In this document: in pieces, positions 16,488-62,977 of the stretch
Position numbering within the stretch: position 1 is the stretch's first letter
Layout: each line of letters starts with the position of its first letter
The notes under the pieces: model-generated
What the model saw: only the letters and a program-made list of their open reading frames with translations
Databases searched by the model: none
Told to the model about the DNA's origin: nothing
Made by a program: the position numbers and the translations under genes
From: Candidatus Omnitrophota bacterium
GTDB lineage: Bacteria > Omnitrophota > Gorgyraeia > 2-01-FULL-45-10
Direction: 5' to 3'
Length of the DNA: 64,000 nt
Assembly (NCBI GenBank): GCA_028699255.1
Contig: JAQVUX010000003.1
Coordinates: 18,654-82,653 of the forward strand

Positions 16488-16496
16488 TGCTATAAT
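16488..16496 (+). promoter_or_regulatory. Extended -10 promoter element tgcTATAAT upstream of ugd; RBS aaggat 16510-16515
   Basis: Perfect TATAAT preceded by TGn, 26 nt upstream of ATG 16522 with AGGA RBS at proper spacing. Confidence 0.45.
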
Positions 16497-16521
16497 ATTG
16501 TCTCCAATAAAGGATAAAAAT

Positions 16522-40985: not shown

Positions 40986-42463
40986 AAATCATGCTCATAT
41001 ATCCGCTTCTTTCCAGGCGGCGGGCCAAGGTCGATGAGAACAAACAGTTTTGGCCGCCGTTGGGGCTTGCGTATATAGCTTCCGTATTAGAGAGGGGCGG
41101 CCATGAGGTTGAGATATTGGACAGGGATGTGATATTGCGCAAAAATAATCTCGATTTCGAAAAGGGGGACGCTTTTATACTCGATAGGATCAGGCAATTT
41201 TCTCCGGGCATATTAGGCATAAGCGTAACAACGCCCAATATGCCGGATGTCGCTTACCTGTCGAACCTGATAAAAAGCTCTTTTAAAAAACCTATGATAG
41301 TCGTGGGCGGGCCGCATGTATCAGGCGAGCCGATTTTGACTATGAAAGAGGCGCCTTCATGCGATGTAGCGGTAAGAGGAGAAGGAGAGTTTACGCTATT
41401 GGAATTGGCCGACGGGAAGTCCTTGACGGACGTATCGGGTATCTCTTACAGATCCGCCTCTTCCGCAGTTTCTAATATCGATAGGATGCCTATCGCCGAC
41501 ATAGACGAGCTTCCGCTCCCAGCCCGCCATCTTTTAGATATGAAGCTATATACCCGGCCGAGCCGTTTTACGAGCAGAAACTTAAGCTTACGCACGACGT
41601 CGATCTTTACGGCACGCGGATGTCCCTACAGATGCAATTTTTGCGCCGGTCCGCTTGTATTTAGCGGCAAGGTAAGATTCCATTCTCCGGCGAGAGTTAT
41701 AAAAGAGATAGAGGAGCTTATTACGAAATATGACGTCGAAGCGCTCTACTTTGCCGAAGACATGTTCCTAAGTTCGAAGAAACGCGCCGAGGACATCCTG
41801 AGCCTTTTTATAGAAAAAGGTATAAATAAAAAGATAAAATGGATCGCGCAGGCAAAGGCGAATATTATAACGAAAGAACTGCTCGAACTTATGAAGGAAT
41901 CTGGTTGCGTAGGCGTCGAGTATGGATTTGAATCCGGTTCGCAAAGGGTGCTTGACCTGATGAACAAAAAGCTGAGCATAGAAGATAGCGTTAAGGCGGC
42001 GGCCCTCACAAGGCGTTCGCACCTGCGTTTCCAGGCGAATATCATCGTGGGTTATCCGGGAGAGCGTATCGAAGATTTTAGACAGACTACGTCATTCATA
42101 AAGAAGATACGTGCCAATATGATAGGCTTCAACCTCTTTATGCCGCTTCCCGGCACGCCAAGTTATGAAAAACTGAAGACGAACGGCACTCCTCTACCCA
42201 GATGGGAAGATGTCGGCGACCAGGAATCACCCGGTACAAATTATGCCGACATGCCCGAAGGTGTTTTCGAAAAGATGTATTACGAGGCGCGGCTCAAGAC
42301 CATATTACCAATAAACTTATGGAACTTTATACTCGATAACGCCGCGCATCCGTTGCGGCTTCTCAAAGTAGGGATGACCCAATTTGGCGGAGTGCTGGTC
42401 AAGACACTGCGCAGTATATCGAAGCTGAACGGTATAAATAAAAAGATCAGGGCGGGGCGATAG
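40982..42463 (+). CDS. Cobalamin-binding (class B) radical SAM enzyme
   Basis: B12-binding N-terminus (KIMLIYPLL...PPLGLAYIASVL), radical SAM ARGCPYRCNFCAG. Confidence 0.8.
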   Translation: MKIMLIYPLLSRRRAKVDENKQFWPPLGLAYIASVLERGGHEVEILDRDVILRKNNLDFEKGDAFILDRIRQFSPGILGISVTTPNMPDVAYLSNLIKSSFKKPMIVVGGPHVSGEPILTMKEAPSCDVAVRGEGEFTLLELADGKSLTDVSGISYRSASSAVSNIDRMPIADIDELPLPARHLLDMKLYTRPSRFTSRNLSLRTTSIFTARGCPYRCNFCAGPLVFSGKVRFHSPARVIKEIEELITKYDVEALYFAEDMFLSSKKRAEDILSLFIEKGINKKIKWIAQAKANIITKELLELMKESGCVGVEYGFESGSQRVLDLMNKKLSIEDSVKAAALTRRSHLRFQANIIVGYPGERIEDFRQTTSFIKKIRANMIGFNLFMPLPGTPSYEKLKTNGTPLPRWEDVGDQESPGTNYADMPEGVFEKMYYEARLKTILPINLWNFILDNAAHPLRLLKVGMTQFGGVLVKTLRSISKLNGINKKIRAGR

Positions 42464-43677: not shown

Positions 43678-44771
43678 AGATACTATTTTTAGTTCCATAT
43701 CCTTCCGAAGGAGCCTCCAATCGCATAAGGGTTGAACAGTTTATTCCTTACCTGAATTCCGCCGGGATAGTGACCAGAGTCAGACCATTTGTGAACAAAA
43801 AATTTTACGAGGTATTATATCTTCCGAAACATTATATGAAAAAAATATTCTGGTTTTCCCTGTGTACTTTTAACAGGATTCTGGATATCGCCAGAGCAAT
43901 AAAATATGACGTGATATTTATACACAGAGAGGCCTATCCTTTGGGCGGAGCTATTATCGAAAGCATACTGCACATGATGGGCAAGCCGATAGTATATGAT
44001 TTCGACGACGCTATATACCTGCCGAACACAAGCGAGCATAATGTCTATATCGAACGGCTGAAGAATCCGCGTAAGACAGAGCGTATAATAAAAATGGCGA
44101 ATCTGGTTATCGCGGGTAATGGCTATCTAAAAAAATATGCGGAACATTATAGCGCTAACGTGCATATAATCCCGAGTTCCGTCGACACCGCGCGTTATAC
44201 TCATCCCGTGATGCCGGGTTCGGACGATAAGGTCGTTATAGGATGGATTGGCAGTGATACGACAAAGCGTTTTCTTCGCGTTATTAAAGAGGCGCTCGAA
44301 GAGCTATCGGGCCGGTATCCTAAAATGTTCCTTAAGGTGGTAGGAGCGTCGCCTTTCAATTCAAAGCTTCCGAATGTTATAAATAAAAGATGGGCCATGG
44401 AAGACGAGATAACCGATTTGCAAAGTTTCGATATAGGCGTTATGCCAATGCCCAACAATGAATGGACCCGGGGGAAATGTGGATTTAAAGCGCTTCTCTA
44501 TATGTCATGCGGCGTGCCGGTTGTCGCGGCAAATGCCGGCGTCAACGCGGAGATCATAAAAGACGGCGATAATGGTTTTCTCGCTTCCAACACCAGAGAA
44601 TGGATAAAGAAACTCACCATTCTTATAGAGGATAAGGAGCTTCGCCGTAAAATGGGAGACAGGGGCAGGCAGACCGTGGAGAGGTTGTATTCGGTAAAGA
44701 GCAATGCCCCGAAGTTTGTGGCGCTTGTATCTGGTATCGCGAAATCGGACTCAAAAGAGGTGTCCGGGTGA
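43674..44771 (+). CDS. Glycosyltransferase family 4
   Basis: FKALLYMSCGVPVVAANAGVNAEIIKDGDNGFLA GT4 C-terminal signature. Confidence 0.7.
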   Translation: MKILFLVPYPSEGASNRIRVEQFIPYLNSAGIVTRVRPFVNKKFYEVLYLPKHYMKKIFWFSLCTFNRILDIARAIKYDVIFIHREAYPLGGAIIESILHMMGKPIVYDFDDAIYLPNTSEHNVYIERLKNPRKTERIIKMANLVIAGNGYLKKYAEHYSANVHIIPSSVDTARYTHPVMPGSDDKVVIGWIGSDTTKRFLRVIKEALEELSGRYPKMFLKVVGASPFNSKLPNVINKRWAMEDEITDLQSFDIGVMPMPNNEWTRGKCGFKALLYMSCGVPVVAANAGVNAEIIKDGDNGFLASNTREWIKKLTILIEDKELRRKMGDRGRQTVERLYSVKSNAPKFVALVSGIAKSDSKEVSG

Positions 44772-46171
44772 AAATATTACTGATAAACCCGTCGCAGAGA
44801 GCCGCATACGGCAAGTTTACCGATGTGCCGACGTTCTTTCCTATGGGGCTCGGGTATCTGGGCGCCTCACTGGAGAAGGGCGGGCACGAAGTTACTCTTG
44901 TGGATATGGATGCCCAGGGTCTTACCGAAGCGGGCCTTAAAGAAATACTCGATCGTACAGGATATGGCCTTGTAGGCATAACCGCGACTTCACCGACGGT
45001 GAAGAGTGCCTTCAAATTGGCCGCGTTCGTGAAATCCGGCGCGAATGCCCGCGTAGTGCTGGGCGGCGTTCATCCGACGCTTTTTCCTGATCATGTATTC
45101 GAATGTAATGATGTCGATTTTGCGATAAGAGGTGAGGGTGAAAATGCAATATTAGAATTAGCCGAGGCTCTGGGAAAGGATGCGGCGCTGGGTGGAATAT
45201 TGGGGCTATCGTTCAGGGGCCCGGAAGGTATTTTACATAATCCGCCGCGACCCCTGATAGAAGACCTGGACAGCCTGCCTTTTCCCATAATGCATAAACT
45301 GAACAAAAACCTTTATTCTTATCCCAATTCTCTCATGAAAAGGATAGCGCCTATATTGACATCGAGGGGTTGCCCGGGCCGATGCACATTTTGCTGTACA
45401 AAAAAGACTTTTGGGACGCGTATAAGATACAGGAGCGCTGAAAACGTAGTGGCCGAGCTCGCCTATCTTAAAGATAATTTCGGCACTCAGGAAATACATG
45501 TATGGGACGACAATTTTATTACCAATAAAAAATTCATAGTAGAGTTAAAGGATTTGATGAGAAAACGCGGCCTCTCTTTCAAGATATGTCTTGTTAACGG
45601 CGTCCGGGTCGATTTTTTTACGGAAGAGATGGCGGGATATTTGAAGGAGATGGGGGTTTATTCAATCGCTTTTGGCATCGAATCCGGGAGTCAGAGGGTT
45701 CTTGACGGAGTAAAGAAGGGCATAAAACTCGAAACTTCTATTAAAGCTGTGGCTATGGCCAGGAGATTTGGATTTGAGACATGGGGATTTTTCATGCTGG
45801 GCCTGCCCGGGGATGATAAGCAGACGATAAAAGAGACGATAGATTTTTCCGTGAAACTCGACCCTGATATAGCTAAGTTCCATATATTAAAGCCGTTTCC
45901 CGGCACAGAGGTTTATGACAAACTTAAAGAAGACGGCTGTTTATTGAGCATGGATTTTGACAGGTATGGCATACATACCGGGCCAGTCCACAGACTGCCG
46001 GGACTGACAGAGGACGATATGATCAAAGCGCAGAAGGCGGCGTACAAGGCATTCTATTTCAGGCCCAAAAAGATATTGAGCCAAATAAATAAACTTAAAA
46101 GTTTTGAAAGAGTAAAATTCCTGGCCAAGGCATCGTTTAATATGGTGAAAATATTAAGAGGTGACGTATGA
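44768..46171 (+). CDS. Cobalamin-binding (class B) radical SAM enzyme
   Basis: B12-binding N-terminus (KILLINPS...PMGLGYLGASL), radical SAM SRGCPGRCTFCCT. Confidence 0.8.
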   Translation: MKILLINPSQRAAYGKFTDVPTFFPMGLGYLGASLEKGGHEVTLVDMDAQGLTEAGLKEILDRTGYGLVGITATSPTVKSAFKLAAFVKSGANARVVLGGVHPTLFPDHVFECNDVDFAIRGEGENAILELAEALGKDAALGGILGLSFRGPEGILHNPPRPLIEDLDSLPFPIMHKLNKNLYSYPNSLMKRIAPILTSRGCPGRCTFCCTKKTFGTRIRYRSAENVVAELAYLKDNFGTQEIHVWDDNFITNKKFIVELKDLMRKRGLSFKICLVNGVRVDFFTEEMAGYLKEMGVYSIAFGIESGSQRVLDGVKKGIKLETSIKAVAMARRFGFETWGFFMLGLPGDDKQTIKETIDFSVKLDPDIAKFHILKPFPGTEVYDKLKEDGCLLSMDFDRYGIHTGPVHRLPGLTEDDMIKAQKAAYKAFYFRPKKILSQINKLKSFERVKFLAKASFNMVKILRGDV

Positions 46172-47644: not shown

Positions 47645-49443
47645 AGAAGATGCTTTTAGCGGCATTCGTCATTACAGCTGTAACATACTTAGCGGTTTTC
47701 GATGGGATATTTTATATAAAGAATATATTTAGCGCTGGTGTTATATTCAACGTGCCTTTACCTTATATTATAGTAACGGTCATGTTCATTTTTTTGTATG
47801 CACGGCTGATGAATAAAAAGATAAAAAATATAGCATATGCCGCGATCGCGGCCGCTGTGTATATATCGTTATTTTATCTTTTGACCGATATGAAGCTGGG
47901 GATGATGAAGAATGACCCATTCGGCGGGAATAGGGGTATCTTCGGGCTCTACGGCATATTCTATTATACGGTAGTGACGGCCGCCTTCTCTTTAATCGCA
48001 GGGGTTTCGTTATCGTGGCGGCTGAAACCGGTATTTTGCCTGCCTGCCGTTTTTTCGTTTGTCGTCGTCGAGTCGATGCTCCTGGTAAATGCCCTTTGGT
48101 TTTATGCGTTTACTTTTATAATCTTTTTTGTTTTAGGGGTTTTATTGAACCGGTCCCGGTTTTTCGTAAAAGAGATATGGCGCCGCGCACCGGGATTTTT
48201 AAAAGACGAAAGAATATTTTTAATTGCCCTGTTAATAGCCGCGATAGCGATCAGATATTTCTGGGGCATGCGGCTCCTGGGAATAACCGGCGCCAATTTC
48301 ATAATCGCCAGCGATGACGGTGTCTCCTACGATAGATTTGCGACCATATTGGCTGGAGGGAACATCATTCCGAAAGAAGATGCCCTGTACGTCAGCGGAT
48401 TCGGTTACTGGTACTTTCTGGGTGCCGCCTACAAAATCTTTGGCGTGCACAACTTTAAGGCGATAGTGCTCATACAGTCGCTTTTGGGGGCCATGGTACC
48501 CATCATCACCTATCGTATCGGGAGGGCGATATTTGGTAATAGATCGGCTCCGTCCATAGCCGCCGCCTTTGTGGCAATCGATATGAACCTTATATTCCTT
48601 TCCGTTGTTATAGGGATGGAGGCGATATACATACCGGTGGTTTTATGCGCGATATGGTATATGGTGCGCCTCTTTAGTCGTATCTATAATATATCTACGA
48701 AGGAGGCTTTTCTTGCAGGTTGTCTTTTCGGCCTCGCGCAGATAATAAGGCCTGAACTACTATTGTTCCCGTTCGTGCTGGCGGCATTGATATGCATTTT
48801 TGTAAAAAACGGCATGAAATTGAAAAAGGCGTTCAGGGTGATCGTGTTTTTATTCGCAGGATTCCTTATTCTCATATCGGTGCAGGGGTTTATTACCTAT
48901 CGAAACTACGGCGTATTTTATGTCGTGCCGTCCACCGGTTTGCAAGGAGCGTTTTCAGGAGGTATTTCCGATGGGCAATGCATTGATGAAAATAAGACGC
49001 TGGACAGTATGGGTTTCAATCCATTCAAGGATATGAGAGGTTCGATAGCGGTGTTTTTCGGCCATCCGGCCGAAGTGGCGCGATTAATGACGTTCGGTTT
49101 TTTAAAGCGGTTTATAATATTTTTCTTCAAACCTAATTTCGGCACCTTCGATCCATTCTATCTTGTAAATCCGGGAAGCGGATATGTATTCGGATTCCCG
49201 CTGTTCGTGCAGTTTTACGGACTGTTATTCACGATATTCGGGTTATTCTCAGCGTTTCTTAAAAAAGAAAATATACCGGCCAAGACTGCGCTTGTATCAT
49301 TCGTTGCCCTGATAGCGTTCCAATACAGTTTTGTATGGGTACTGAATGCCAGATATAGAGGCGTTGTCCTCCCGGTAATAATGTTGTTCATGGCATACGG
49401 GATAACGGTGTTTTATAAAAAAGCCAAAGAGAATCTGTCATGA
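47641..49443 (+). CDS. GT-C fold membrane glycosyltransferase (ArnT/PMT-like), paralog of 11196..12917
   Basis: Polytopic; IIASDDGVSY DD motif; shared blocks with 11196 ORF (VIGMEAIYIP, FKPNFGTFDP, NPGSGY, NARYRGV). Confidence 0.6.
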   Translation: MKKMLLAAFVITAVTYLAVFDGIFYIKNIFSAGVIFNVPLPYIIVTVMFIFLYARLMNKKIKNIAYAAIAAAVYISLFYLLTDMKLGMMKNDPFGGNRGIFGLYGIFYYTVVTAAFSLIAGVSLSWRLKPVFCLPAVFSFVVVESMLLVNALWFYAFTFIIFFVLGVLLNRSRFFVKEIWRRAPGFLKDERIFLIALLIAAIAIRYFWGMRLLGITGANFIIASDDGVSYDRFATILAGGNIIPKEDALYVSGFGYWYFLGAAYKIFGVHNFKAIVLIQSLLGAMVPIITYRIGRAIFGNRSAPSIAAAFVAIDMNLIFLSVVIGMEAIYIPVVLCAIWYMVRLFSRIYNISTKEAFLAGCLFGLAQIIRPELLLFPFVLAALICIFVKNGMKLKKAFRVIVFLFAGFLILISVQGFITYRNYGVFYVVPSTGLQGAFSGGISDGQCIDENKTLDSMGFNPFKDMRGSIAVFFGHPAEVARLMTFGFLKRFIIFFFKPNFGTFDPFYLVNPGSGYVFGFPLFVQFYGLLFTIFGLFSAFLKKENIPAKTALVSFVALIAFQYSFVWVLNARYRGVVLPVIMLFMAYGITVFYKKAKENLS

Positions 49444-50174
49444 ATAAGAGCAAAAAGTTTTCATTATTAGTACTGGCGATCCTTTTGGCGGCTGTCATAG
49501 TCTTGGCCAATATCAACGTTTCGATAACGCAGGGCGTTGACGGCCGATTAAGGACTATAACGATGCCGCTCTATGTAAAGTGGATAGAGTTTTTATCGCG
49601 CCATTATGAATACGCGAGGATTGCCAAAGAGGTTACGGCGGGTTGCCGTTCCGACGAAGATAAGACGCTGGCGATACTGAAATGGACGCACGATAATATA
49701 AGAAAAACACCTTCGGAGTGGCCCGTAGTCGATGACCACGTGCTCAATATAATCATACGCGGGTATGGGGTGGCCGATCAGTTCCAGGATGTTTTTACCA
49801 CGTTATGCGCATACAGCGGTTTACCGGCATTTTATGAAGATACATATAACGATAAGAAAGAGGCGCGATATCCGATAGCGTTTGTCAAATTTAACAATTC
49901 ATGGCACGCCTTCGATGCCTATTACTATAAGTATTTTAAGACCAACGACGGCAGGATCGCTACCATCGAAGATATAATAAGGGACAGATCTATAATCGAT
50001 AAGGCTATCGGTGGCGATATGACATGGGGAGGAGTGCCGTATAGGAATTTTTACTATAGTTTAAAGCCGGTGGAGGAAGGAAAGACTCTTCGTCCCGCCA
50101 AACAGATGCCAATGAACAGGATATTATTCGAGATTAAGAAAGCGATAGGGTTGGAGAAGGGTAAGGCCGCATGA
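49440..50174 (+). CDS. Hypothetical exported/membrane-anchored protein (possibly transglutaminase-like Cys-His-Asp fold)
   Basis: N-terminal signal/TM (LLVLAILLAAVIVLA); Cys (TAGCRSDEDK) and downstream WHAFDAY His/Asp spacing loosely resembles transglutaminase-like core. Confidence 0.3.
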   Translation: MNKSKKFSLLVLAILLAAVIVLANINVSITQGVDGRLRTITMPLYVKWIEFLSRHYEYARIAKEVTAGCRSDEDKTLAILKWTHDNIRKTPSEWPVVDDHVLNIIIRGYGVADQFQDVFTTLCAYSGLPAFYEDTYNDKKEARYPIAFVKFNNSWHAFDAYYYKYFKTNDGRIATIEDIIRDRSIIDKAIGGDMTWGGVPYRNFYYSLKPVEEGKTLRPAKQMPMNRILFEIKKAIGLEKGKAA

Positions 50175-50548
50175 TATCTTCGGCAATACACGGCATAGGT
50201 GTTGATATAGAGGAGGTTCGCAGGTTCAAAACCATTAAAAGTAACTCGAGGTTTGCCCGGCGCGTATATACAAAGAACGAGCTTAGTTATTGTAATGCGT
50301 TTTCCGAGCCCGGGCCTCATCTCGCGGTACGGTTTGCCGCCAAAGAAGCCGTTTTGAAAGCCTTGGGCTCAGCGCGTAAAAATACAGGATTTAGCGATAT
50401 AGAAATACTTAACAGGAAAAACAGCGGAGAGCCGGTTGTGAACATTGCTAAAAACGGTATTAATAAAAAGTTTTCGTTTTTTATCAGCCTTTCACACTCG
50501 CAAACCAAGGCCGTAGCATTTTCGGTCATAACCAGGATAGCGCGATAG
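50171..50548 (+). CDS. acpS: Holo-[acyl-carrier-protein] synthase (4'-phosphopantetheinyl transferase, AcpS type)
   Basis: IHGIGVDIEEVRRFK Mg-binding start, 125 aa AcpS length, conserved FAAKEAVLKALG block. Confidence 0.7.
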   Translation: MISSAIHGIGVDIEEVRRFKTIKSNSRFARRVYTKNELSYCNAFSEPGPHLAVRFAAKEAVLKALGSARKNTGFSDIEILNRKNSGEPVVNIAKNGINKKFSFFISLSHSQTKAVAFSVITRIAR

Positions 50549-50556
50549 GGGTAATT

Positions 50557-52341
50557 ATGGAGAACGCGGTAGCTTATTATCACTCGGAAGACAGGAAGGT
50601 CGATAGGAAGAACAGGGTATTCCCAGTTTTTTCGCCGGATCCTAAGGTAGTAAGGGTTGCCATATTGGGAAGTTCCACATTAAAAGGCGTCAAAGAAGCG
50701 CTGAATGTAAAATGCAGTCAGGCAGGGCTCGTTATGAAATCTTATGTCGGGGAATATGCGCAGTATAATCAGGAGATCCTTGATAAAGGGAGCGGATTGT
50801 ATAAATTCAAACCGCACCTGACGATAATGATGATCGATATAATCGATCTTCTGGGGGAGAATTATTATTTTCCTTACAGGTTATCCGAACGCGGCCGCAA
50901 ATCTCTGGTCGAAGCCAAGCGGAAGGAGTTGTTATCTCTGGCAAAAGCTTTCGCCAAAGACTGCGACGGGGTACTTCTCATCAATAATTTCAGTGTACCG
51001 ACCTATTCTCCGATGGGGATACTGGAGCCCAAGCAAAAATTCGGTTTCTTCGAAATGATCCGTGCTCTTAACAGGGCGTTGGAAGAGGCCTCAAGGATGA
51101 ACCCTCAGTTGCATATATTTGATTATGATGCCTTTTTAAGCAAATCCGGAAAGATGGAGTGCTCCGATGATAAGATGCGGTATATAGCGGATATGAAGAT
51201 AAGTCAGAGCTATGTACCCGCTCTTTGTGATGAATATATGCGATACGTGAAAGCCATTAAGGCTAAAATGCGAAAATGCATAGTCCTCGACCTCGACAAT
51301 ACGCTGTGGGGTGGTATCGTAGGCGAGGATGATTTTGCAAGTTTAAGACTCGGCCCGACCGCGCCCGGCAACGCGTTCGTTGAGTTCCAGAAATATATCC
51401 TAAACCTTTTCGAGCGGGGCATCATCCTTGCCATAAACAGCAATAACAACGAAAAGGACTCGCTCGCGGTCATCAGAAAACATCCTCACATGATACTACG
51501 GGAAAAACATTTTGCCGCGATACGGATCAACTGGGAAAACAAAGTGCGAAACCTGGTGGATATAGCTAAAGAGATAAATATCGGCCTCGACAGTATTATA
51601 TATATAGACGACGATAAGGCAAATCGCCAGCTCGTCAGGGAGATGGCGCCGGAAGTGCTTACGCTGGAGATGCCGCCCGACGCCGCATTGTATGTGCGGA
51701 CGATCAGGGAATGTAAAGATCTCGATACTCTCCATATTACCGAAGAAGACATGAAGCGGGGCGCTATGTATGCCGAGGAGAAAAAACGGAAAGACTCGTT
51801 TAAATCTTTCGGCGATATAGGAGATTTTCTCGCTCATCTCAATATAGAGGTCAGGATCGAACGCTCCGGGTCGTTCTCTATTCCGAGGATATCGCAACTT
51901 ACGCAGAGAACCAATCAGTTCAATTTTACCACACGGCGCTTTTCGGATACGGATGTCCGCTCTCTGACAAGCGATAAGGCCGCCGAGATCTATTCGATCA
52001 GCGTAAAGGACAGGTTCGGGGATAGCGGTATATCAGGGATGGTTTCTTTTAAAGCGTCAAAGGATGCTATCATGGTCGAGGATCTTTTGCTGAGTTGCAG
52101 AGTGCTCGGCAAAGGTGTCGAAGAATCCGTGCTGGCTTTTCTCGTGGAGACGGCCCGCAAGTCGGATCTTAATCATATCATATGCAGATATATTCCGACG
52201 GCGAAAAATTCCATGGTACAAAAATTCCTAAAATCATCCGGTTTCGCGCGGGTAAAAATGCCCGGCAACGGCGAAACTTGGCGCTTTATGGTGAAGCGGG
52301 GATTTAAAAGACCGGGGCACATAAAGGTGGTTACAAAATGA
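50557..52341 (+). CDS. FkbH-like protein (HAD-superfamily IIIC phosphatase domain with C-terminal GNAT-like domain), predicted glyceryl-ACP loading enzyme
   Basis: HAD motif I CIVLDLDNTLWGG, HAD motif IV IIYIDDD, 594 aa FkbH-like architecture, directly upstream of ACP. Confidence 0.65.
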   Translation: MENAVAYYHSEDRKVDRKNRVFPVFSPDPKVVRVAILGSSTLKGVKEALNVKCSQAGLVMKSYVGEYAQYNQEILDKGSGLYKFKPHLTIMMIDIIDLLGENYYFPYRLSERGRKSLVEAKRKELLSLAKAFAKDCDGVLLINNFSVPTYSPMGILEPKQKFGFFEMIRALNRALEEASRMNPQLHIFDYDAFLSKSGKMECSDDKMRYIADMKISQSYVPALCDEYMRYVKAIKAKMRKCIVLDLDNTLWGGIVGEDDFASLRLGPTAPGNAFVEFQKYILNLFERGIILAINSNNNEKDSLAVIRKHPHMILREKHFAAIRINWENKVRNLVDIAKEINIGLDSIIYIDDDKANRQLVREMAPEVLTLEMPPDAALYVRTIRECKDLDTLHITEEDMKRGAMYAEEKKRKDSFKSFGDIGDFLAHLNIEVRIERSGSFSIPRISQLTQRTNQFNFTTRRFSDTDVRSLTSDKAAEIYSISVKDRFGDSGISGMVSFKASKDAIMVEDLLLSCRVLGKGVEESVLAFLVETARKSDLNHIICRYIPTAKNSMVQKFLKSSGFARVKMPGNGETWRFMVKRGFKRPGHIKVVTK

Positions 52342-52577
52342 AAACACTGAAAAAAATATTATCCGAAGTTCTGGGCGTGAGCCCCAACAAGATAAATGAT
52401 AATACCTCTCCCAAGAATGTGAAAAAGTGGGATTCCTTCCATGGCCTCTTACTGGTTACCGAGCTGGAAAATAGTTATAAGGTTAAGTTTAGCATGGACG
52501 ATGTTATATCCGTCAGGAATGTGGGAGACATAAAGAAGGCTTTAAAAAAATACGGGGTGAAGATTGAAGAAGCATAA
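52338..52577 (+). CDS. Acyl carrier protein
   Basis: 79 aa, phosphopantetheine-site motif KKWDSFHGLLLVTELE (DSx), acidic helix II. Confidence 0.7.
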   Translation: MKTLKKILSEVLGVSPNKINDNTSPKNVKKWDSFHGLLLVTELENSYKVKFSMDDVISVRNVGDIKKALKKYGVKIEEA

Positions 52578-52998
52578 AACGAGCGCCGGGCTGGAATATA
52601 AGGATATAAAGATCGGCAGTAGATATTCGTTCAGCAGGAGTATATCACAAATGGATGTGGAAAACTTCGCCGCGCTTTCCGGTGATTTCAATCCTCTGCA
52701 TCTGGACGAGAAATACGCCGGCTCCACGATGTTCGGAGGGACGATCGTCCATGGCATGCTCGCGGCCTCGTTTTTCTCGACTCTGATAGGAATGCTCTGC
52801 CCCGGCAGAAACGCCGTTATATTACAGCAGGAGATAAGGTATTTAAGCCCTGTGAGGCCGGGCCGTATTGTCAAGGCAACCGGCAAAGTTATACGAAAAG
52901 TCGACGCTCTGAAAATAATCGTTATGGAACATGCCGTAAAATCTAAGAGCGGCAAGGTTCTTATAGAAGGTGTTTCGAATATAAAAGTTATGAGGTGA
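52564..52998 (+). CDS. MaoC-like (R)-specific hydratase/dehydratase, hot-dog fold
   Basis: FAALSGDFNPLHLDEKYA hydratase motif. Confidence 0.75.
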   Translation: MKKHKTSAGLEYKDIKIGSRYSFSRSISQMDVENFAALSGDFNPLHLDEKYAGSTMFGGTIVHGMLAASFFSTLIGMLCPGRNAVILQQEIRYLSPVRPGRIVKATGKVIRKVDALKIIVMEHAVKSKSGKVLIEGVSNIKVMR

Positions 52999-53001
52999 AA
53001 G

Positions 53002-53751
53002 ATGCTGAGCGGAAAAGTAATTTTAATTACAGGTTCCAGCAGGGGGATAGGTTCCGAAACGGCGCGTCTTGCGGCAGGCCGCGGCGCGTCCGTCGTAATA
53101 AATTATAACAAAGACCGCTCCGGCGCTGAAAGTACGGCGGCGGCCATAAAGAAAGCCGGTAAAGGGCGCGCGGTGGTTGTAAAAGCCGATGTTTCACGGG
53201 AAGACGAGGCCGGTAAATTGATTGACCTGATCGTGAAAAAATTCGGGAAGATAGATGTGCTGATAAATAATGCCAGCGCGCCTATAGAGTACACGCCGCT
53301 TTCGGATATAAAATGGAAGTCGTTCCAGAAACATTATGAGGTGACGCTCCGGGGGGCTTTAAATATGGTGAAGCGCGTAGTCCCATTCATGTCCGCCCGC
53401 GGCCGCGGCAAAATCATAAATATACTTTCTTCCGTTACCGTGGGTGTGCCGCCGTCAAAATTCGCCGATTACATATCGGCCAAATACGCGCTTCTGGGGT
53501 TTTCCCGCGCGCTTGCCGTGGAGCTCGGCTCGTCGGGCATTACGGTAAACTGTATCTCGCCGGGCATGACAAATACTGCGATGACAGAAAAACTACCGGC
53601 GAAGATGAAAGAGATAGTTTCCTATACAACGCCGCTAAAAAGGCTGGCCGAGCCGGTCGACATAGCTCGTGTCGCGGCTTTTTTGTGCTCCAGCGATTCA
53701 GATTATATAACCGGAGTTAATATACCGGTGTGCGGTGGCAGTGTGATGTGA
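53002..53751 (+). CDS. fabG: 3-oxoacyl-ACP reductase-like short-chain dehydrogenase
   Basis: TGSSRGIGSETARLAA cofactor motif, NNAS, catalytic YISAKYALLGF (YxxxK). Confidence 0.8.
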   Translation: MLSGKVILITGSSRGIGSETARLAAGRGASVVINYNKDRSGAESTAAAIKKAGKGRAVVVKADVSREDEAGKLIDLIVKKFGKIDVLINNASAPIEYTPLSDIKWKSFQKHYEVTLRGALNMVKRVVPFMSARGRGKIINILSSVTVGVPPSKFADYISAKYALLGFSRALAVELGSSGITVNCISPGMTNTAMTEKLPAKMKEIVSYTTPLKRLAEPVDIARVAAFLCSSDSDYITGVNIPVCGGSVM

Positions 53752-53761
53752 GGTTTATATA

Positions 53762-54568
53762 GTGAACAGGCGAACGATCAAAAAAAGTATATCAGATATA
53801 GTGCTTTTTGCCGGAGCTTTCTCTGGAAATAATCCTCAGAAAGACGGGCTCCGCGTGCTGAATTATCATTCGATAACCGCTTTGCCGGTTTCGGCCGATC
53901 ATTATCAGATGACTACCCCGAGAGAGCTTTTTGACGGCCAGATGCGCTTCCTTAAAGAGAGTGGCTATAAAGTATTGACATGCGAGGAGGCGTTTTCCGC
54001 AGTCGGTAAAAGCGCGTCTTTGCCGTCCCGGAAGGTCTGTATAACTTTTGATGACGGTTTTAAGGACAATCTGGTTAACGCACTTCCGGTGTTGCGCAAG
54101 TACGGCTTTAAAGCGACGATATTTTTGACGATCGATTTTATCGGCAAGGACGATTCGTACCTTGGCTGGAAAGATATCGACGAACTCGCCATGACGGGGC
54201 TATTTTCTTTTGGCTCGCATACTATGAGTCACAGGAAGCTGTCTTTGCTTGGCGATGATGAGATTATCAAAGAGATCGGAGACTCAAAGAAGATCCTGGA
54301 AGACAGAACCAAAACCCCCGTCGATATATTCGCTTATCCGTTCGGATGTTACGGTTCGTTCGATGACAGATCCATAACAGCGGTCAGGGATAGCGGTTAT
54401 AAGGCGGCGGTGACAACCATAGCCGGGCTTAATTCCTCCGGCGACGATCCGTATCTTGTTAAAAGGATGCGCATATCATGGCAGGACGATACGCGGGAGT
54501 TTTCTAAACAGCTTTGCGGCGCATACGATTGGTACAGATTATGGCAGAGAATAACGACATTACGCTAA
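53762..54568 (+). CDS. Polysaccharide deacetylase (NodB/CE4 family)
   Basis: NodB motif 1 ITFDDGFKDN, motif 2 HTMSHRKL, motif 3-like AYPFG. Confidence 0.8.
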   Translation: MNRRTIKKSISDIVLFAGAFSGNNPQKDGLRVLNYHSITALPVSADHYQMTTPRELFDGQMRFLKESGYKVLTCEEAFSAVGKSASLPSRKVCITFDDGFKDNLVNALPVLRKYGFKATIFLTIDFIGKDDSYLGWKDIDELAMTGLFSFGSHTMSHRKLSLLGDDEIIKEIGDSKKILEDRTKTPVDIFAYPFGCYGSFDDRSITAVRDSGYKAAVTTIAGLNSSGDDPYLVKRMRISWQDDTREFSKQLCGAYDWYRLWQRITTLR

Positions 54569-55641
54569 AAATGGCCGCAGATGCACAGGCGAGGGCATCG
54601 GCCGATGTTTCATTCGGCCGCCTGTCCATGAAGGATGACGAGGAATATACAAAATTTCTTGTTACGGCGCATAAGGGGAGATTTAACGGTTATCTTTTTA
54701 AAGATCCCGGAATGGCCCGCAGGTTGTGGCGCTGGGAATATCTGGACAATCCCGATGCGCGCGACGGAGGGCCGTATATATGGATATGCAGGATAAAAGG
54801 CGCCATCGCCGGCCAGGCTTGCGTCATGCCGGTAATGGTAAAAACGGGTGATAGCTATTTCAGGGGCGGATGGTTTCAGGATCTTATCATGCTTCCGGAA
54901 TTCAGAAATACCGGAATAGGCTATTTTCTCGTTAAGCATGTACTTGGTGAATTAACGGCGTCGCTGGATATAGCGATGGTATCCGGAACCAATGAAGAAT
55001 CTTACCCTCTTTTTAAAACGCTTGGGTTTACCGATATGGGGCATATCGGTCGAAATATATATGTAAATGCGCTGTCCGCGTTTTTTACCACTACCGCCTG
55101 CAAGAGCGCTCTAGAGATAAATGAGATTAAGGATATAGGCGAGAGTTTTAATGAATTGTGGCGCGAACTTTCCGGGCGTTTTACCTGCGCCGTCGAAAGA
55201 GATAGCGAAAGAGTGAAGTGGAGGTTCGTCAATCAGCCATATTGGAGATATCGCATCTTTGCGGCGACACGCGGCGGATCTATGAGGGGTTATGTTGTGC
55301 TAAAGGAGAGCATCAAGCGTAAAGGCCCGCTGGGTTGTTTACGAGCTGGAACCATCTCAGATATATTTTTCGATCCTTCTGAAGAAGGAGTGGGTAGCGC
55401 GCTTATTGCCACGGCCGCACGTTATTTTAAAGGCAGGGCGGATATTATAAAATGCGATATCCTGAACGAAGGCGTAAAAACCGTGGTTATTAAGAATGGG
55501 TTTTTTAATACGGTTTCCAATAGCAGATTTCTTATGTATCCACTAAATAATATGGATGGAAGGGATGGGTTAGTAACTGTGGCAAAAGATCCTCGAACAT
55601 GGTTCCTTACCAATGGGGATTCAGATATGGATTTATCTTAA
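54514..55641 (+). CDS. GNAT-family acyltransferase, two-domain (alternative starts ATG 54541 / 54571)
   Basis: GNAT motif A LPEFRNTGIGYFLVKHVL; 375 aa suggests tandem GNAT-like folds. Confidence 0.5.
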   Translation: MRRIRLVQIMAENNDITLKMAADAQARASADVSFGRLSMKDDEEYTKFLVTAHKGRFNGYLFKDPGMARRLWRWEYLDNPDARDGGPYIWICRIKGAIAGQACVMPVMVKTGDSYFRGGWFQDLIMLPEFRNTGIGYFLVKHVLGELTASLDIAMVSGTNEESYPLFKTLGFTDMGHIGRNIYVNALSAFFTTTACKSALEINEIKDIGESFNELWRELSGRFTCAVERDSERVKWRFVNQPYWRYRIFAATRGGSMRGYVVLKESIKRKGPLGCLRAGTISDIFFDPSEEGVGSALIATAARYFKGRADIIKCDILNEGVKTVVIKNGFFNTVSNSRFLMYPLNNMDGRDGLVTVAKDPRTWFLTNGDSDMDLS

Positions 55642-55649: not shown

Positions 55650-55678
55650 TTGACAATAAGTTAAAGATGTAGTATTAT
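55650..55678 (+). promoter_or_regulatory. Sigma70-type promoter TTGACA-17nt-TATTAT upstream of HTH regulator gene
   Basis: Consensus -35, 17-nt spacer, 5/6 -10; located in 70-nt intergenic gap. Confidence 0.55.
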
Positions 55679-55710: not shown

Positions 55711-56211
55711 ATGGCCATGAATGAAAAATTAGAGTCAGCGCAACATAAATTTATAGAGAGTATAGGAAAGCTATGCGATAGCTTCGGATTCAACAAATTC
55801 ATCGCTCAACTTTATGCCCTTCTATATCTGAGTGACAGGCCTATGTCGCTCGATGAGCTCTCGGAAAAACTTTCGGCAAGTAAGGGCAATGTCAGCCTTA
55901 ATATAAGGGAACTTGAAAAATGGGGGGCTGTGAAGAATATTTGGGTGAAAGGCTCGAGAAAAGATTATTACGAAGCCGATACTGATATCAAAAAAGTCTT
56001 TTCCAACAAGATCAGGACGGCTGTCCAGAAGCGGATCGGCGAAATCTCCGGGATGGTTGGCGAATTCAACACGATAGTTGATTCGGCCAGTGCGGAGTTG
56101 ACTGAAGAAGAGAGGAAGATAGCGGCGCTTTACCGGGAGAGGATGAAGAAGATAGAGGATATGAAGAGTCTGGCATCAACGGCATTAAGTCTTATGGAGA
56201 AGATATTATAA
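55711..56211 (+). CDS. Winged-helix transcriptional regulator (MarR/GbsR/ArsR-like)
   Basis: HTH block LYALLYLSDRPMSLDELSEKLSASKGNVSLNIRELEKWGAV, 166 aa, C-terminal coiled-coil. Confidence 0.6.
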   Translation: MAMNEKLESAQHKFIESIGKLCDSFGFNKFIAQLYALLYLSDRPMSLDELSEKLSASKGNVSLNIRELEKWGAVKNIWVKGSRKDYYEADTDIKKVFSNKIRTAVQKRIGEISGMVGEFNTIVDSASAELTEEERKIAALYRERMKKIEDMKSLASTALSLMEKIL

Positions 56212-56227: not shown

Positions 56228-56914
56228 ATGAACAAGGCTATTTTAATACAGGCGCGTTTGTCGTCAAAAAGACTTCCCGGGAAAATGATGCTAAAGCTGG
56301 GCGGTATCCCGTTGGCCGAATTCGTATATCGGCGTTGTGAGATATCCAAAAAAGCCGGTATCATCGCCATTATAACTTCGACGGATAAAAGCGACGACGA
56401 ACTTTTTAAATACTGTGTTTCTAAAAAATTATGTGTTTACAGGGGCTCTCTGGACAACGTATTGGACAGGTATATATCCGCGGCTGAAGCCTATGCCTCG
56501 CATCTGGTATGCCGTGTATGCGGCGATTCGCCATTTGTGGATATTGAATTGGTCGACGCGATGTTCGATATGGTCGAAAAGGAGGGGGTTGATTATGCCG
56601 CCCCGGACAAAAAAAATTGCATGGCCGGGCTTGATTCGGAGGTAATAGCGACCGAAGCCTTAAAGAGAAGCGCCACCTCCGCAACTTCTAAAAACGATTT
56701 TGAGCACGTAACATCCAATATCAGGAATAATCCTGATAATTTCAATATCAGGTATATAAAAACGGAATTAAAACCCCGCGACCTGAATGCCATATCGGTA
56801 ACGGTCGATCATCAGAAAGACATGGATCTGTGCAATAAAGTGCTGAAGTCGATAGGGGATGGATATTCCTTCAGATCCGAAGATATTTTTAACGCTTTAA
56901 GAGAAAACAGGTAA
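56228..56914 (+). CDS. Acylneuraminate cytidylyltransferase-family enzyme (SpsF/PseF/NeuA-like CMP-sugar synthetase)
   Basis: N-terminus AILIQARLSSKRLPGKMMLKLGGIPL characteristic of CTP_transf_3 family. Confidence 0.7.
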   Translation: MNKAILIQARLSSKRLPGKMMLKLGGIPLAEFVYRRCEISKKAGIIAIITSTDKSDDELFKYCVSKKLCVYRGSLDNVLDRYISAAEAYASHLVCRVCGDSPFVDIELVDAMFDMVEKEGVDYAAPDKKNCMAGLDSEVIATEALKRSATSATSKNDFEHVTSNIRNNPDNFNIRYIKTELKPRDLNAISVTVDHQKDMDLCNKVLKSIGDGYSFRSEDIFNALRENR

Positions 56915-56917: not shown

Positions 56918-57778
56918 ATGACAGATATCCCGAAATTCCCGAAAAGACTGGAGCTGGAGCTTGCCAGCAGTTGCAACCTGCGGTGTACGTATTGCCCGCG
57001 CCGTTACCTGGATAATCTGAACGGTTATATGGATTTTACCCTGTTCAAAAAGATAATAGACGAGGCAAGCGCGTATCCGGAGACCATAATAGTCCTGCAC
57101 AGGAGGGGGGAAAGCCTTCTTCATCCCAGATTTAACGACATAATAAATTATATCGCCGGAAAATTCAAAGAGATACAGCTCGCCACTAACGCTACGCTTC
57201 TGACCGAAGAAAAATTCGAGGCGATAGTAAAGGGGTTGAATTTTATCTCCTTCAGCCTCGATACGCCGGGCAATTATGACAAGACTCGTATCCCGGCGCG
57301 TTATGAAATCGTCGAGAGCAGGATATTGAAATTTTTGCAATTTAATAAAGGAAGGGTAAGAACCCAGGCTTCCATGGTCAAAACAGAAAAAACGAAAGAA
57401 ACGGATGTCGCGATATTCAAGGATGTCTGGCGCGCGCGTGTTGACAGGGTCCGCATATACGAGGAGCATTCAGTTGGCGGTGTTTTCGGCGCTATGAATA
57501 ATCCCAGGCGGGAAAGGAAAACCTGCGTTATGCCTTTCTACGAACTGCTGATCTATGACAGCGGTCGGGCCGGCAGGTGCAACCACGACTGGGATGGGGA
57601 ACCGATGGGGGATGTAAATGCCAATACGATCTCGGAAATATGGCACAGCCAACGGTATTCGAGCCTGAGAAAAGAACAGCGGGAGCTTAAGTTCAGCGAT
57701 GCGGTATGTAAAGATTGCGACTGTTGGTACGCGGAGATCGGCAAACAAGGGACGGGCGATGTTATCGAAAAATCTTAG
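56918..57778 (+). CDS. Radical SAM enzyme with SPASM/twitch-like C-terminal Cys cluster
   Basis: LASSCNLRCTYCP (CxxxCxxC); C-terminal CVMPF...CNHDWDG...CKDCDCW. Confidence 0.65.
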   Translation: MTDIPKFPKRLELELASSCNLRCTYCPRRYLDNLNGYMDFTLFKKIIDEASAYPETIIVLHRRGESLLHPRFNDIINYIAGKFKEIQLATNATLLTEEKFEAIVKGLNFISFSLDTPGNYDKTRIPARYEIVESRILKFLQFNKGRVRTQASMVKTEKTKETDVAIFKDVWRARVDRVRIYEEHSVGGVFGAMNNPRRERKTCVMPFYELLIYDSGRAGRCNHDWDGEPMGDVNANTISEIWHSQRYSSLRKEQRELKFSDAVCKDCDCWYAEIGKQGTGDVIEKS

Positions 57779-61882: not shown

Positions 61883-62977
61883 ATGAGTGGGATAGCAAGG
61901 GACAAGGCCAGATATTATAGCGAACTTGAAAAGTTTGTGAAGGTCTGTAAAAAACTGAACAGATCCGGCGGAGCATATCTGGTGATTATAGCCAGTCATG
62001 AACTGTACAGGTTCCTTTATCCGTATGAACCTTATGAAGGTTTTCATAACAGGATGCCCGTTAAATTCATAGCAAATAAGATAGTCGAGCTTAATGATTT
62101 TTTGGATAAAAGCTCGAGGGCCATCAAGTTTTACGATTTCGATGTTAAAAAATTCGGCGCCGGCGCTTCGCCCGATACCGGTCTGGAGAAGAAGACCTCG
62201 GACCTGTATACGTCCCTTTGGGAAAAATTCGAGCACACGGCTATTATTGAAGAAAGCAAGAAACTGATCTCCAGTCGCATACCGGGTAAGATCATCGAGA
62301 GCTGTATAAAAGGTAAGGTCGTTCTCGATATGGGGTGCGGTAGCGGCAGGTATTCCATCGCGCTCTCGCTTCTTGGCGCGAAGAAAGTTTACGCGCTCGA
62401 TCTTTTTGAACAATCTTTTGCGGCATACAGGAAAATCGCTCGCGGTAAGGGGTTGAACATCGAGTTTCGCGAAGGTAATTTCCATAATCTGCCTTATCCC
62501 GGCGACTACTTTGATTTTATTTTTTGCAACGGTACGATGCATCACTCCACCTCTATCAGGAAGAGTCTGGCGGAATTTAAAAGGGTTCTGAAGCCCGGAC
62601 ACAAGGGGTTTGTATATATTTATGCAAAAGGAGGTATTTTCTGGGATACGCGTAAGAAGATGCGCGAGATATTCAGAGAGGTACCCTCCGGGTACACCAA
62701 TGAAGTATTGAAGATAATGTTTATGCCATCGAATAGATTTATATTCGCGGATACGTGGCATGTGCCCATAGAGGAGCATACCTCCAGAAAAGACCTTGAG
62801 TGTATGTTTAAGGAGCTGGGCCTTAGATTCCGGAAGATAATATCAAAAGGCATGTTCGACCTGGACAGAGTTGCGCACAGGAGCGCCGAGGATTCAGTGA
62901 TGTGGGGAGACGGAGAACATCGTTATATACTGGAGAAGCCGGATGTACATAATAGCGGAAATCGGTATAAATCATAA
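61883..62977 (+). CDS. Class I SAM-dependent methyltransferase with ~150 aa N-terminal extension
   Basis: Motif I VLDMGCGSGRYSIAL, VLKPGHKGFVYIY. Confidence 0.65.
   Translation: MSGIARDKARYYSELEKFVKVCKKLNRSGGAYLVIIASHELYRFLYPYEPYEGFHNRMPVKFIANKIVELNDFLDKSSRAIKFYDFDVKKFGAGASPDTGLEKKTSDLYTSLWEKFEHTAIIEESKKLISSRIPGKIIESCIKGKVVLDMGCGSGRYSIALSLLGAKKVYALDLFEQSFAAYRKIARGKGLNIEFREGNFHNLPYPGDYFDFIFCNGTMHHSTSIRKSLAEFKRVLKPGHKGFVYIYAKGGIFWDTRKKMREIFREVPSGYTNEVLKIMFMPSNRFIFADTWHVPIEEHTSRKDLECMFKELGLRFRKIISKGMFDLDRVAHRSAEDSVMWGDGEHRYILEKPDVHNSGNRYKS

Follow-up and report, generated by a model that had tools for sequence, protein, structure and literature searches.

A seven-gene cassette in an Omnitrophota glycan locus

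We analysed a 64,000-nt stretch of contig JAQVUX010000003.1 (positions 18,654 to 82,653 of the forward strand), here called the window, from a Candidatus Omnitrophota metagenome-assembled genome (MAG; assembly GCA_028699255.1). It contains a cassette of genes predicted to load and modify an acyl group on an acyl carrier protein (ACP), followed by genes for a deacetylase and an acyltransferase, and we propose that together they would exchange the N-acyl group of an amino sugar. Seven tightly coupled genes on the + strand, at window positions 50171-55641, were confirmed by open reading frame (ORF) listing together with Pfam and NCBIfam scans:

50171-50548, +, AcpS-type 4'-phosphopantetheinyl transferase (PPTase), 125 aa (PF01648, TIGR00516, TIGR00556)
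50557-52341, +, FkbH-like loader, 594 aa (TIGR01686, TIGR01681 HAD-IIIC, PF21211)
52338-52577, +, ACP, 79 aa (PF00550, D32-S33-F34)
52564-52998, +, MaoC/PhaJ-type hot-dog (de)hydratase, 144 aa (PF01575, hydratase-2 motif)
53002-53751, +, FabG-like classical short-chain dehydrogenase/reductase (SDR), 249 aa (PF13561, TGxxxGIG, Y157xxxK161)
53762-54568, +, NodB/CE4 deacetylase, 268 aa (PF01522, TFDDG95, H153xxxH157, YPFG192)
54541-55641, +, tandem-GNAT N-acyltransferase, 366 aa (PF00583, R122xxG125xG)

Counting from the transglutaminase-like gene directly upstream, whose stop overlaps the PPTase start by 4 nt, the spacers and overlaps along consecutive genes are -4, 8, -4, -14, 3, 10 and -28 nt; the ACP start thus overlaps the FkbH stop by 4 nt. 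With this tight spacing and its recurrence in unrelated metagenomes, the arrangement exceeds chance. The first-pass annotation of this DNA had described seven consecutive genes with these identities over the same interval, and profiles and motifs agree with it once two starts are adjusted. MaoC probably begins at TTG 52564 (144 aa), with ATG 52651 as the alternative, because alignments to PhaJ structures in the PDB start at residue 10 and the orthologues in loci L090 and L091 have a called length of 144 aa. For the GNAT, the start is most likely ATG 54541 (366 aa) and not TTG 54514, since both the called gene and the NCBI protein begin there.

For comparison, we examined 80 metagenomic FkbH loci, one locus from a named genome (L002) and nine loci with precomputed Pfam calls. 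Neighbour statistics were obtained by BLAST, neighbour clustering and Pfam scans of cluster representatives; a locus is termed well flanked if at least 3 kb lie on both sides of FkbH (n=25).

An FkbH-type loader with a specialised carrier protein

The FkbH-like protein comprises an FkbH_N domain, a HAD-IIIC phosphatase domain and a C-terminal Cys domain. Its public record, MDD3905536.1, on a 219-kb contig of the Omnitrophota MAG, carries the sole annotation 'HAD-IIIC family phosphatase'. A profile check had been proposed with the original assignment, and a lack of the HAD catalytic Asp residues had been named as the result that would undo it. The protein scores 296 bits against TIGR01686 (cut-off 146.65), aligning to profile positions 3-320 of 323, and 65.8 bits against TIGR01681 (cut-off 35.75), and the Asp residues are present: D245 and D247 (in D245-L-D247-N-T), S295, K329, D351-353 and Cys514 are invariant across 15 relatives.

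In the FkbH family, the conserved C-terminal Cys forms the acyl-S-enzyme intermediate, a role known from work on OzmB. Cys514, which lies within LLSCRV, is the predicted acyl-carrying residue here. It aligns with the SCR of two more distant proteins found in a tblastn search of plasmids, which returned full-length homologues about 29% identical (29-30%) over about 580 aligned residues, from Methylosinus trichosporium OB3b and Pseudalkalibacillus hwajinpoensis. These lie inside canonical tetronate cassettes, ordered ketosynthase III (KSIII)-FkbH-ACP-E2-like-FAD monooxygenase-alpha/beta hydrolase-type I polyketide synthase (PKS), and retain all HAD motifs together with the C-terminal TNQFN, FGD and SCR motifs. 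Because the tetronate-context homologues share the HAD and C-terminal motifs, it is a well-founded expectation from homology that the window protein would make glyceryl-S-ACP from 1,3-bisphosphoglycerate. The only relative in the PDB is BF1531 of Bacteroides fragilis (3slr), which is uncharacterised.

The neighbouring genes encode an ACP and a PPTase. The ACP scores 26.4 bits against PF00550 (cut-off 20.8), with Ser33 as the attachment site, and falls below every equivalog cut-off for AcpP of fatty-acid synthesis (FAS), so we regard it as a specialised ACP. The PPTase scores 65.5 bits against PF01648, 73.8 against TIGR00556 (cut-off 45.35) and 72.6 against TIGR00516 (cut-off 59.8), and has the motifs D12-I-E and K58-E-A.

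We also noted that the 90%-identity cluster holding the 594-aa FkbH-like protein has a 49-aa pilin-like peptide as its representative and such peptides as most of its members, apparently an artefact of how the protein collection was clustered.

A variable tailoring slot after the ACP

MaoC scores 76 bits against PF01575 (cut-off 27) and contains an exact match, FAALSGDFNPLHLDEKYA, to the hydratase-2 motif [YF]-x(1,2)-[LVIG]-[STGC]-G-D-x-N-P-[LIV]-H-x5-[AS]. Its closest PDB entries are the (R)-specific enoyl-CoA hydratases 5cpg (E 5e-22) and 1iq6 (E 1.5e-19). The SDR scores 193 bits against PF13561, with TGSSRGIG at residue 10 and Y157xxxK161 in an NSYK-type motif. It had been called a FabG-type reductase. 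The protein is indeed a classical, FabG-like SDR; however, it fails the FabG equivalog profiles (TIGR01830, 189 vs 297.75 bits; NF004198, 192.5 vs 296), and we therefore describe it as a FabG-like ketoreductase-type enzyme and not as FabG.

In related loci, the position between the ACP and the NodB-GNAT pair varies. It is empty in L087, the closest orthologous locus, where MaoC and SDR are missing; it holds MaoC and SDR in the window, L090 and L079; and it holds an O-methyltransferase and a VOC protein in L084:

L087, FkbH 66% identical: FkbH-ACP-NodB-GNAT-helix-turn-helix (HTH)-CMP transferase-radical SAM (rSAM)/SPASM-DegT, MaoC/SDR absent
L084, FkbH 60% identical: FkbH-ACP-[O-methyltransferase]-[VOC protein]-NodB-GNAT
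L090, FkbH 57% identical: NodB-FkbH-ACP-MaoC-SDR-GNAT-HTH
L079, FkbH 36% identical: NodB-ACPS-FkbH-ACP-MaoC-FabG-GNAT

In L087, identities to the window are 66% for FkbH, 74% for ACP, 62% for NodB, 53% for GNAT, 71% for HTH, 61% for the CMP-transferase and 75% for rSAM. Variants of the cassette occur in L087, L084 and L041. Since the slot varies among related loci, MaoC and SDR appear to be optional editors of an ACP-bound acyl group, with NodB and GNAT as the constant output. A neighbour cross-table further showed that SDR occurs solely where MaoC occurs (12/12 loci with SDR), as expected if the reductase works on the dehydratase product.

In L084, the slot (12054-13289) is occupied by genes for an O-methyltransferase (Methyltransf_3/24) and for a VOC protein weakly similar to methylmalonyl-CoA epimerase; downstream of the tandem GNAT lies a split transketolase pair (15446-17238). 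In other loci, a gene for a B12-binding rSAM enzyme stands between FkbH and ACP or directly after ACP (L086 11811-13298; P0005 12024-13535), and this enzyme may C-methylate the ACP-bound acyl group.

A deacetylase and a tandem GNAT as the proposed output pair

NodB scores 87 bits against PF01522 (cut-off 23.1) and carries TFDDG95, H153TMSH157 and YPFG192. With no hydrophobic N-terminus (Kyte-Doolittle 15-residue maximum 1.16) and neither a signal nor a membrane segment, the enzyme is probably located, and able to act, in the cytoplasm. There it is predicted to take the N-acetyl group off an amino-sugar intermediate. Its orthologues in L084 and L087 (53-62% identity) directly precede the tandem GNAT.

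The GNAT scores 41.9 bits against PF00583, with R122xxG125xG. An AlphaFold2 model (pLDDT 92) reveals a tandem GNAT, and Foldseek concurs. At E<=1e-10, an exhaustive HMMER search recovered 864 representatives, conserved in both halves; a word-index homology search had returned 3 relatives only. In ten of the fetched loci, a match to the family HMM lies beside FkbH. The structural neighbours are amino-sugar or amine N-acyltransferases. The tandem GNAT is predicted, from gene linkage only, to transfer the acyl group carried by the ACP to the freed amine.

The transglutaminase-like protein upstream (49440-50174) was also considered as an ACP-to-amine acyltransferase and rejected, since its N-terminus forms a strongly hydrophobic anchor (Kyte-Doolittle 3.44) and the protein is probably extracytoplasmic. 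A membrane-anchored transglutaminase-like protein of Cys-protease fold is likewise encoded directly upstream of ACPS/FkbH in the closest relatives (L084 9245-9958, P0005 and L004).

Distribution and exchange of output pairs

The FkbH-like family is large, with more than 5,800 relatives at E<=1e-10 in the word-index search, including Omnitrophota, CPR bacteria and DPANN archaea. A query with BF1531 gave 7,999 matches at E<=1e-20 in the protein collection, and those returned were close Bacteroidales relatives only; the Bacteroidales FkbH-like family is abundant as well. ACP follows FkbH in 70/77 related loci, and an AcpS gene adjoins FkbH in 44 of the 72 with enough flank. MaoC is present in 46/59 loci with enough downstream sequence (21/25 of those well flanked) and a FabG-like SDR in 12/48.

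The NodB-GNAT pair accompanies FkbH-ACP in at least six independent loci, at FkbH identities of 36-66%. Elsewhere the output differs. In L086 (Candidatus Gorgyraea atricola), L002 and L067, FkbH-ACP-MaoC adjoins NeuB and genes of legionaminic/pseudaminic acid (Leg/Pse) type, and a DUF2172/Peptidase_M28 amidase-like protein and an AAC(3)-like acetyltransferase replace NodB and GNAT. A hexapeptide acyltransferase paired with a DUF3473-NodB protein is common in marine FkbH loci. These types pair assortatively, window-type NodB with tandem GNAT, DUF2172 with AAC(3)-like and DUF3473-NodB with hexapeptide, and no cross-pairs were seen. The hexapeptide protein has its best scores against families of O-acetyltransferases, and we therefore did not count the last combination as a third pair for N-acyl exchange.

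Two further contexts were observed. In L085 (5639-12087) and in 12/81 metagenomic FkbH loci (for example L034), MBOAT and a DltD/DUF1574-like protein adjoin FkbH-ACP(-MaoC-SDR). This is reminiscent of Dlt D-alanylation and suggests a carrier-dependent O-acylation of an extracytoplasmic polymer by a C3 hydroxy-acid. The context in L092 (10001-18258), from gut Bacteroidales, is different and lipid/glycan-anchor-like: an FkbH-like gene, whose product is a relative of BF1531, is followed by VOC and ACP genes, with two Acyl_transf_3, UbiA, GtrA, PAP2 and sulfatase-like genes nearby.

The surrounding nonulosonic acid locus

The cassette lies within one very large glycan locus that spans roughly 10-64 kb of the window. 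It includes nucleotide-sugar dehydrogenases, dehydratases and epimerases, an RmlA-like transferase, three DegT aminotransferases, three AsnB-like amidotransferases, many GT1/GT2/GT4 glycosyltransferases and numerous SAM methyltransferases. Following the cassette are genes for a winged-helix protein, a CMP-sugar synthetase, an rSAM/SPASM protein, a PseC-like aminotransferase, a dehydrogenase-like protein, an AsnB-like protein, a methyltransferase and a NeuB-family synthase. The features discussed below are:

55711-56211, +, GbsR/MarR-like winged-helix protein, 164-166 aa (MarR_2/HTH_20 Pfam below cut-off; CudC-like 79 bits, cut-off 218)
56228-56914, +, CMP-sugar synthetase (CTP_transf_3; PF02348, 95 bits)
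62943-64000, +, NeuB-family nonulosonic acid synthase (PF03102 on the full gene, L003; extends 4 nt past the window end)
12889-15042, 15014-16471, 32131-33585, 35366-36445, 37851-39290, 40982-42463, 44768-46171 and 56918-57778, radical SAM genes

A locus for a nonulosonic acid (NulO, a sialic-acid-like sugar) is recognised by a NeuB-family synthase together with a CMP-NulO synthetase, and both are present. The NeuB-family gene starts at about 62943 and lies outside the seven-gene cassette; its product scores 285 bits against TIGR03569 and 216 against TIGR03586. The CMP-sugar synthetase has a 61% identical orthologue behind the equivalent HTH gene in L087 and, by its family, likely activates the modified nonulosonic acid. 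Beyond the window the contig encodes a PseG-like protein and a WecD/PseH-like GNAT. All scores against pathway-specific equivalogs are below cut-off (NeuB 285/400, PseI 216/340, PseG 117/154, PseC 343/424). The link to a NulO or glycan pathway drawn in the first-pass annotation is thus borne out by the CMP-transferase, the PseC-like aminotransferase, the NeuB-family synthase and the PseG-like protein.

Beyond NeuB, 1-7 kb past the window end (L003 13864-19119), lie genes for a PIG-L deacetylase, an ArnA-like formyltransferase and a WbuX/HisH/HisF amidotransferase set. As read from these gene families, the locus encodes two further N-acyl editing routes beside the FkbH cassette, N-formyl and N-acetimidoyl. 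We therefore read the locus as a pathway to a nonulosonic acid in which N-acyl groups can be edited in several ways.

The winged-helix protein is a possible dedicated regulator of the cassette. A 71% identical orthologue occupies the same position in L087 (3033-3527), and a 163-164-aa gene holds it in L090 (14494-14988) and in the P0005 locus. The gene is preceded by a 69-nt gap containing an 11/12 sigma-70-like site at 55650-55678; counts in the promoter/terminator scan were not significantly above those in shuffles.

The density of radical SAM genes is unusually high, with five B12-binding rSAM, two rSAM/SPASM and one plain rSAM, and suggests that the sugars are heavily C-methylated or otherwise radical-modified. 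One of them (12889-15042) encodes a 717-aa fusion of a B12-rSAM and a class I methyltransferase domain. The margin of the glycan locus (8078-12917) carries a gene for a 732-aa LptC/LptA-like protein, followed by those for a UbiA prenyltransferase and a PMT_2 glycosyltransferase; the LptC/LptA-like protein indicates that the organism is diderm.

Relation to characterised systems

Amino sugars are known to be N-acylated from ACP, as in the formation of perosamine tetronate in Vibrio cholerae O1 (RfbK-N), in the attachment of the 4-amino-2-hydroxybutyrate (AHBA) side chain of butirosin (BtrI/BtrH) and by LpxD. These systems resemble the proposed one in that a dedicated or specific acyl-ACP is the donor for an amino-sugar amide. 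To our knowledge, they use other loaders (adenylating ligases or FAS) and other transferase folds, and we know of none among them with FkbH or a prior deacetylation.

With the FkbH/OzmB/RkD systems of polyketide loading, the cassette shares the HAD-IIIC and C-terminal Cys domains, an ACP immediately downstream and a dedicated PPTase. In contrast to them, the window cassette has no KSIII, PKS, FkbK/I/G or tetronate-forming genes, its surroundings are purely glycan genes, its outputs are NodB and a tandem GNAT, and its loader is only about 29% identical to the tetronate-context proteins. A closer parallel is offered by loading modules of trans-AT PKSs: the dehydratase/ketoreductase of FR901464 and the dehydratase (DH)-ketoreductase (KR)-FkbH-ACP module of bryostatin BryA reportedly convert glyceryl-ACP to lactyl-ACP. 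FkbH, ACP, dehydratase and ketoreductase are encoded together in the window too, although here the enzymes are discrete, the dehydratase is a MaoC/PhaJ single hot-dog and the product would pass to a sugar amine and not to a ketosynthase. FkbH loading is tabulated as D-lactate-ACP in BiGMeC (PMC7901079).

Campylobacter jejuni provides the nearest likeness in a glycan pathway: an FkbH-domain gene lies in its NulO locus, and a deacylase candidate is genetically required for glyceroyl. The likeness extends through the Omnitrophota loci L086, L002 and L067, where an M28/DUF2172 and AAC(3)-like pair stands beside FkbH-ACP-MaoC and NeuB. Cj1295 is presumed to be a DUF2172/M28 protein and Cj1296/7 a member of the AAC(3) family. 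The window differs from the C. jejuni-type pair in having NodB and a tandem GNAT, plus MaoC and SDR, so another acyl group is predicted. The flagellar locus of C. jejuni yields Pse7Ac5(2,3-di-O-methylglyceroyl), and Cj1295, described as aminopeptidase-like, is required in strain NCTC 11168 for 5-N-(2,3-di-O-methylglyceroyl) pseudaminic acid (PMC3068675). Hitchen et al. (2010) hypothesised that Cj1295 removes the N5-acetyl group so that glyceroyl can be added; Cj1296/7 is listed as an N-acetyltransferase (PMC3068675). The FkbH-domain gene of the 11168 flagellar glycosylation locus is cj1302 (PMC7099621). The literature that we searched contained no paper giving FkbH a role in glycan acylation and mentioned cj1302 only incidentally; nor did it contain a publication on the roles of FkbH and ACP in C. 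jejuni, where only Cj1295 had been tested.

Products of the predicted kind are known. Tannerella forsythia Pse5Am7Gra and Vibrio vulnificus 7-N-glyceroyl-Pse carry a C3 hydroxyacyl group on a NulO nitrogen, as predicted for the window, and glyceryl, lactoyl and hydroxybutyryl are listed among prokaryotic NulO modifications (PMC8157484). According to Friedrich et al. (2017), the genes that place N-glyceroyl on Pse had been identified in none of T. forsythia, V. vulnificus and C. jejuni (PMC5378307).

Proposed pathway and alternatives

We consider it somewhat more likely than not that the seven genes form an operon-like module which makes a C3 hydroxyacyl-ACP and then swaps this acyl group for the N-acetyl group of an amino sugar. 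The chemical steps, the dependence of the GNAT on ACP, the identity of the sugar and the acylated position are predicted from what is observed, namely protein families, motifs, operon structure and synteny. The AcpS-type PPTase would convert the ACP to its holo form. The FkbH-like enzyme would then dephosphorylate 1,3-bisphosphoglycerate and pass the D-glyceryl group through Cys514 to the ACP. MaoC is predicted to dehydrate glyceryl-ACP, eliminating the 3-OH to give 2-hydroxyacryloyl-ACP, which would tautomerise to pyruvoyl-ACP. The SDR is a predicted alpha-ketoreductase that would reduce the 2-oxo group to yield lactyl (2-hydroxypropanoyl)-ACP. Cytoplasmic NodB would strip the N-acetyl group from the sugar, and the tandem GNAT would move lactyl from the phosphopantetheine arm of the ACP to the freed amine. 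An order of dehydration and then reduction fits both the occurrence of SDR only with MaoC and the behaviour of the slot. The sugar acted on would most probably be an intermediate on the way to the nonulosonic acid that the adjoining genes make.

In outline, the first-pass annotation had put forward the same sequence of deacetylation and re-acylation from ACP. Three observations lend it indirect support: NodB and GNAT stay with FkbH-ACP while the slot changes, a non-homologous deacylase/acyltransferase pair occurs in other FkbH loci, and the same exchange has been proposed for Cj1295 (PMC3068675). As to the acyl group, glyceroyl and 3-hydroxybutanoyl had been suggested. Because MaoC and SDR would convert glyceryl-ACP via pyruvoyl-ACP, as in DH-KR-FkbH-ACP loading modules, the product of the window cassette is most likely N-lactyl rather than N-glyceroyl. 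By the same slot logic, L087-type loci should give N-glyceroyl and L084-type loci an O-methylated, possibly epimerised glyceroyl.

Several observations weigh against the proposed exchange or parts of it. The closest structures to the tandem GNAT are all acyl-CoA users (Eis, N-myristoyltransferase (NMT) and glucosamine N-acetyltransferases); its use of acyl-ACP is therefore no more than a prediction, and the protein may be an ordinary CoA-dependent N-acetyltransferase. Most MaoC-containing FkbH loci have no SDR, which is found in just 7/25 well-flanked loci, so the dehydrated product may be used otherwise. The polyketide precedent for lactyl-ACP reportedly uses a PKS-type DH and not MaoC, and in the literature read it is represented by one table entry (PMC7901079). 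Recurrence of the cassette beside NeuB had been suggested as a check; NeuB is nearby in only 3/25 well-flanked relatives, and the FkbH module is therefore not specific to NulO loci. Within the window locus itself, other amino-sugar genes (two more DegT) and the PIG-L deacetylase, formyltransferase and WbuX amidotransferase mean that the target may not be a NulO, and it may be another amino sugar of the locus. The MBOAT and DltD-like proteins and the Acyl_transf_3 proteins found next to FkbH-ACP hint at O-acyl outputs.

These points shape the alternatives. The same exchange might transfer glyceroyl (2,3-dihydroxypropanoyl), possibly O-methylated later, in which case MaoC and SDR would serve in proofreading, in epimerisation via dehydration and rehydration, or on another substrate. 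NulOs bearing N-glyceroyl or di-O-methylglyceroyl have been described from T. forsythia, V. vulnificus and C. jejuni (PMC5378307, PMC3068675), the locus has many methyltransferases, and the L087 orthologue, without MaoC and SDR, would make exactly this product. In the window, however, MaoC, with its hydratase-2 motif intact, is encoded between the ACP and the output enzymes; across loci, SDR is never present without MaoC, which fits sequential DH and KR action, and FkbH, DH, KR and ACP constitute the reported route to lactyl-ACP (PMC7901079 tabulates FkbH loading as D-lactate-ACP). We regard glyceroyl transfer in the window as unlikely, though a credible competitor. It is also conceivable, if rather improbable, that the two halves of the cassette work separately, NodB and GNAT as acetyl-CoA-dependent editors and FkbH, ACP, MaoC and SDR toward a product that goes elsewhere, for example onto the glycan as an O-acyl group placed by another transferase, or to a lipid. 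The CoA-dependent structural relatives of the GNAT would suit such a division, as would the O-acyltransferase classes beside FkbH-ACP in other loci (MBOAT with DltD-like, Acyl_transf_3, and the hexapeptide protein closest to O-acetyltransferases). It sits poorly with the recurrence of NodB-GNAT alongside FkbH-ACP in at least six independent loci and with the overlapping reading frames in the window; in addition, a WecD/PseH-like GNAT belonging to the pathway itself is encoded next to the PseG-like gene, and there is no other acyltransferase in or adjoining the window cassette.

Two readings that dispense with a C3 donor for the glycan carry very little weight with us. Were the cassette part of a polyketide, tetronate or fatty-acid pathway, its position in a glycan locus would be incidental. 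FkbH-like proteins are best known from PKSs, and the 29-30%-identical plasmid homologues do lie in tetronate/PKS clusters; yet true tetronate neighbourhoods look different, and all neighbours here are glycan genes. Ketosynthase (KS) or acyltransferase (AT) genes nearby had been named as evidence that would tell against a glycan role. No KS, AT, PKS or FabH gene turned up when + strand ORFs of 110 aa or more across the 64-kb window were scanned with Pfam (the 115-aa ORF at 25274-25621 excepted), nor among the precomputed Pfam families of genes in the 10 kb downstream, and there was no KS in the related loci whose called genes were read. The prospect that MaoC and FabG act in fatty-acid fashion to provide 3-hydroxybutanoyl, or a longer 3-hydroxyacyl group, for N-acylation seems to us equally slight. 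3-Hydroxybutanoyl is commonly found N-linked to NulOs and other amino sugars (PMC8157484 lists hydroxybutyryl), and MaoC and FabG are textbook enzymes of 3-hydroxyacyl thioesters. The earlier suggestion of this product is nevertheless unlikely to hold, because there is no condensing enzyme, such as a ketosynthase, to build C4 and the sole loader, FkbH, supplies C3 and would lack a role. We favour exchange of N-acetyl for a C3 hydroxyacyl group, with lactyl in the window.

Implications

Glyceryl-ACP loading by FkbH is already known, and N-acyl exchange has been hypothesised for C. jejuni. For the window, the first-pass interpretation is partly supported and is refined here: the acyl group would be C3, probably lactyl, and the architecture modular, with a slot and an output. 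More broadly, FkbH-ACP may be a very widespread donor system that decorates cell-surface glycans with C3 hydroxy-acids (glyceroyl, lactyl and O-methylglyceroyl), a generalisation to which we give slightly less than an even chance. Similarly tentative is the view that this wider system consists of a swappable slot after the ACP and interchangeable deacylase/acyltransferase pairs, possibly with O-acyl outputs via MBOAT/DltD-like or AT3 proteins.

If the proposal is true, a polyketide device, FkbH glyceryl-ACP loading with optional DH and KR action to lactyl-ACP, has been reused for glycans across many phyla, and the content of the slot would predict the acyl group from sequence. N-lactyl nonulosonic acids would be predicted in Omnitrophota. 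The module would also account at the gene level for the N-glyceroyl groups on nonulosonic acids in Tannerella forsythia, Vibrio vulnificus and Campylobacter jejuni, for which genes have been missing, and an open question of glycobiology, which genes install glyceroyl (reported as unidentified in 2017, PMC5378307), would become experimentally testable. Variation of the N-acyl groups on nonulosonic acids and other amino sugars affects phage receptors, immune recognition and flagellar function.

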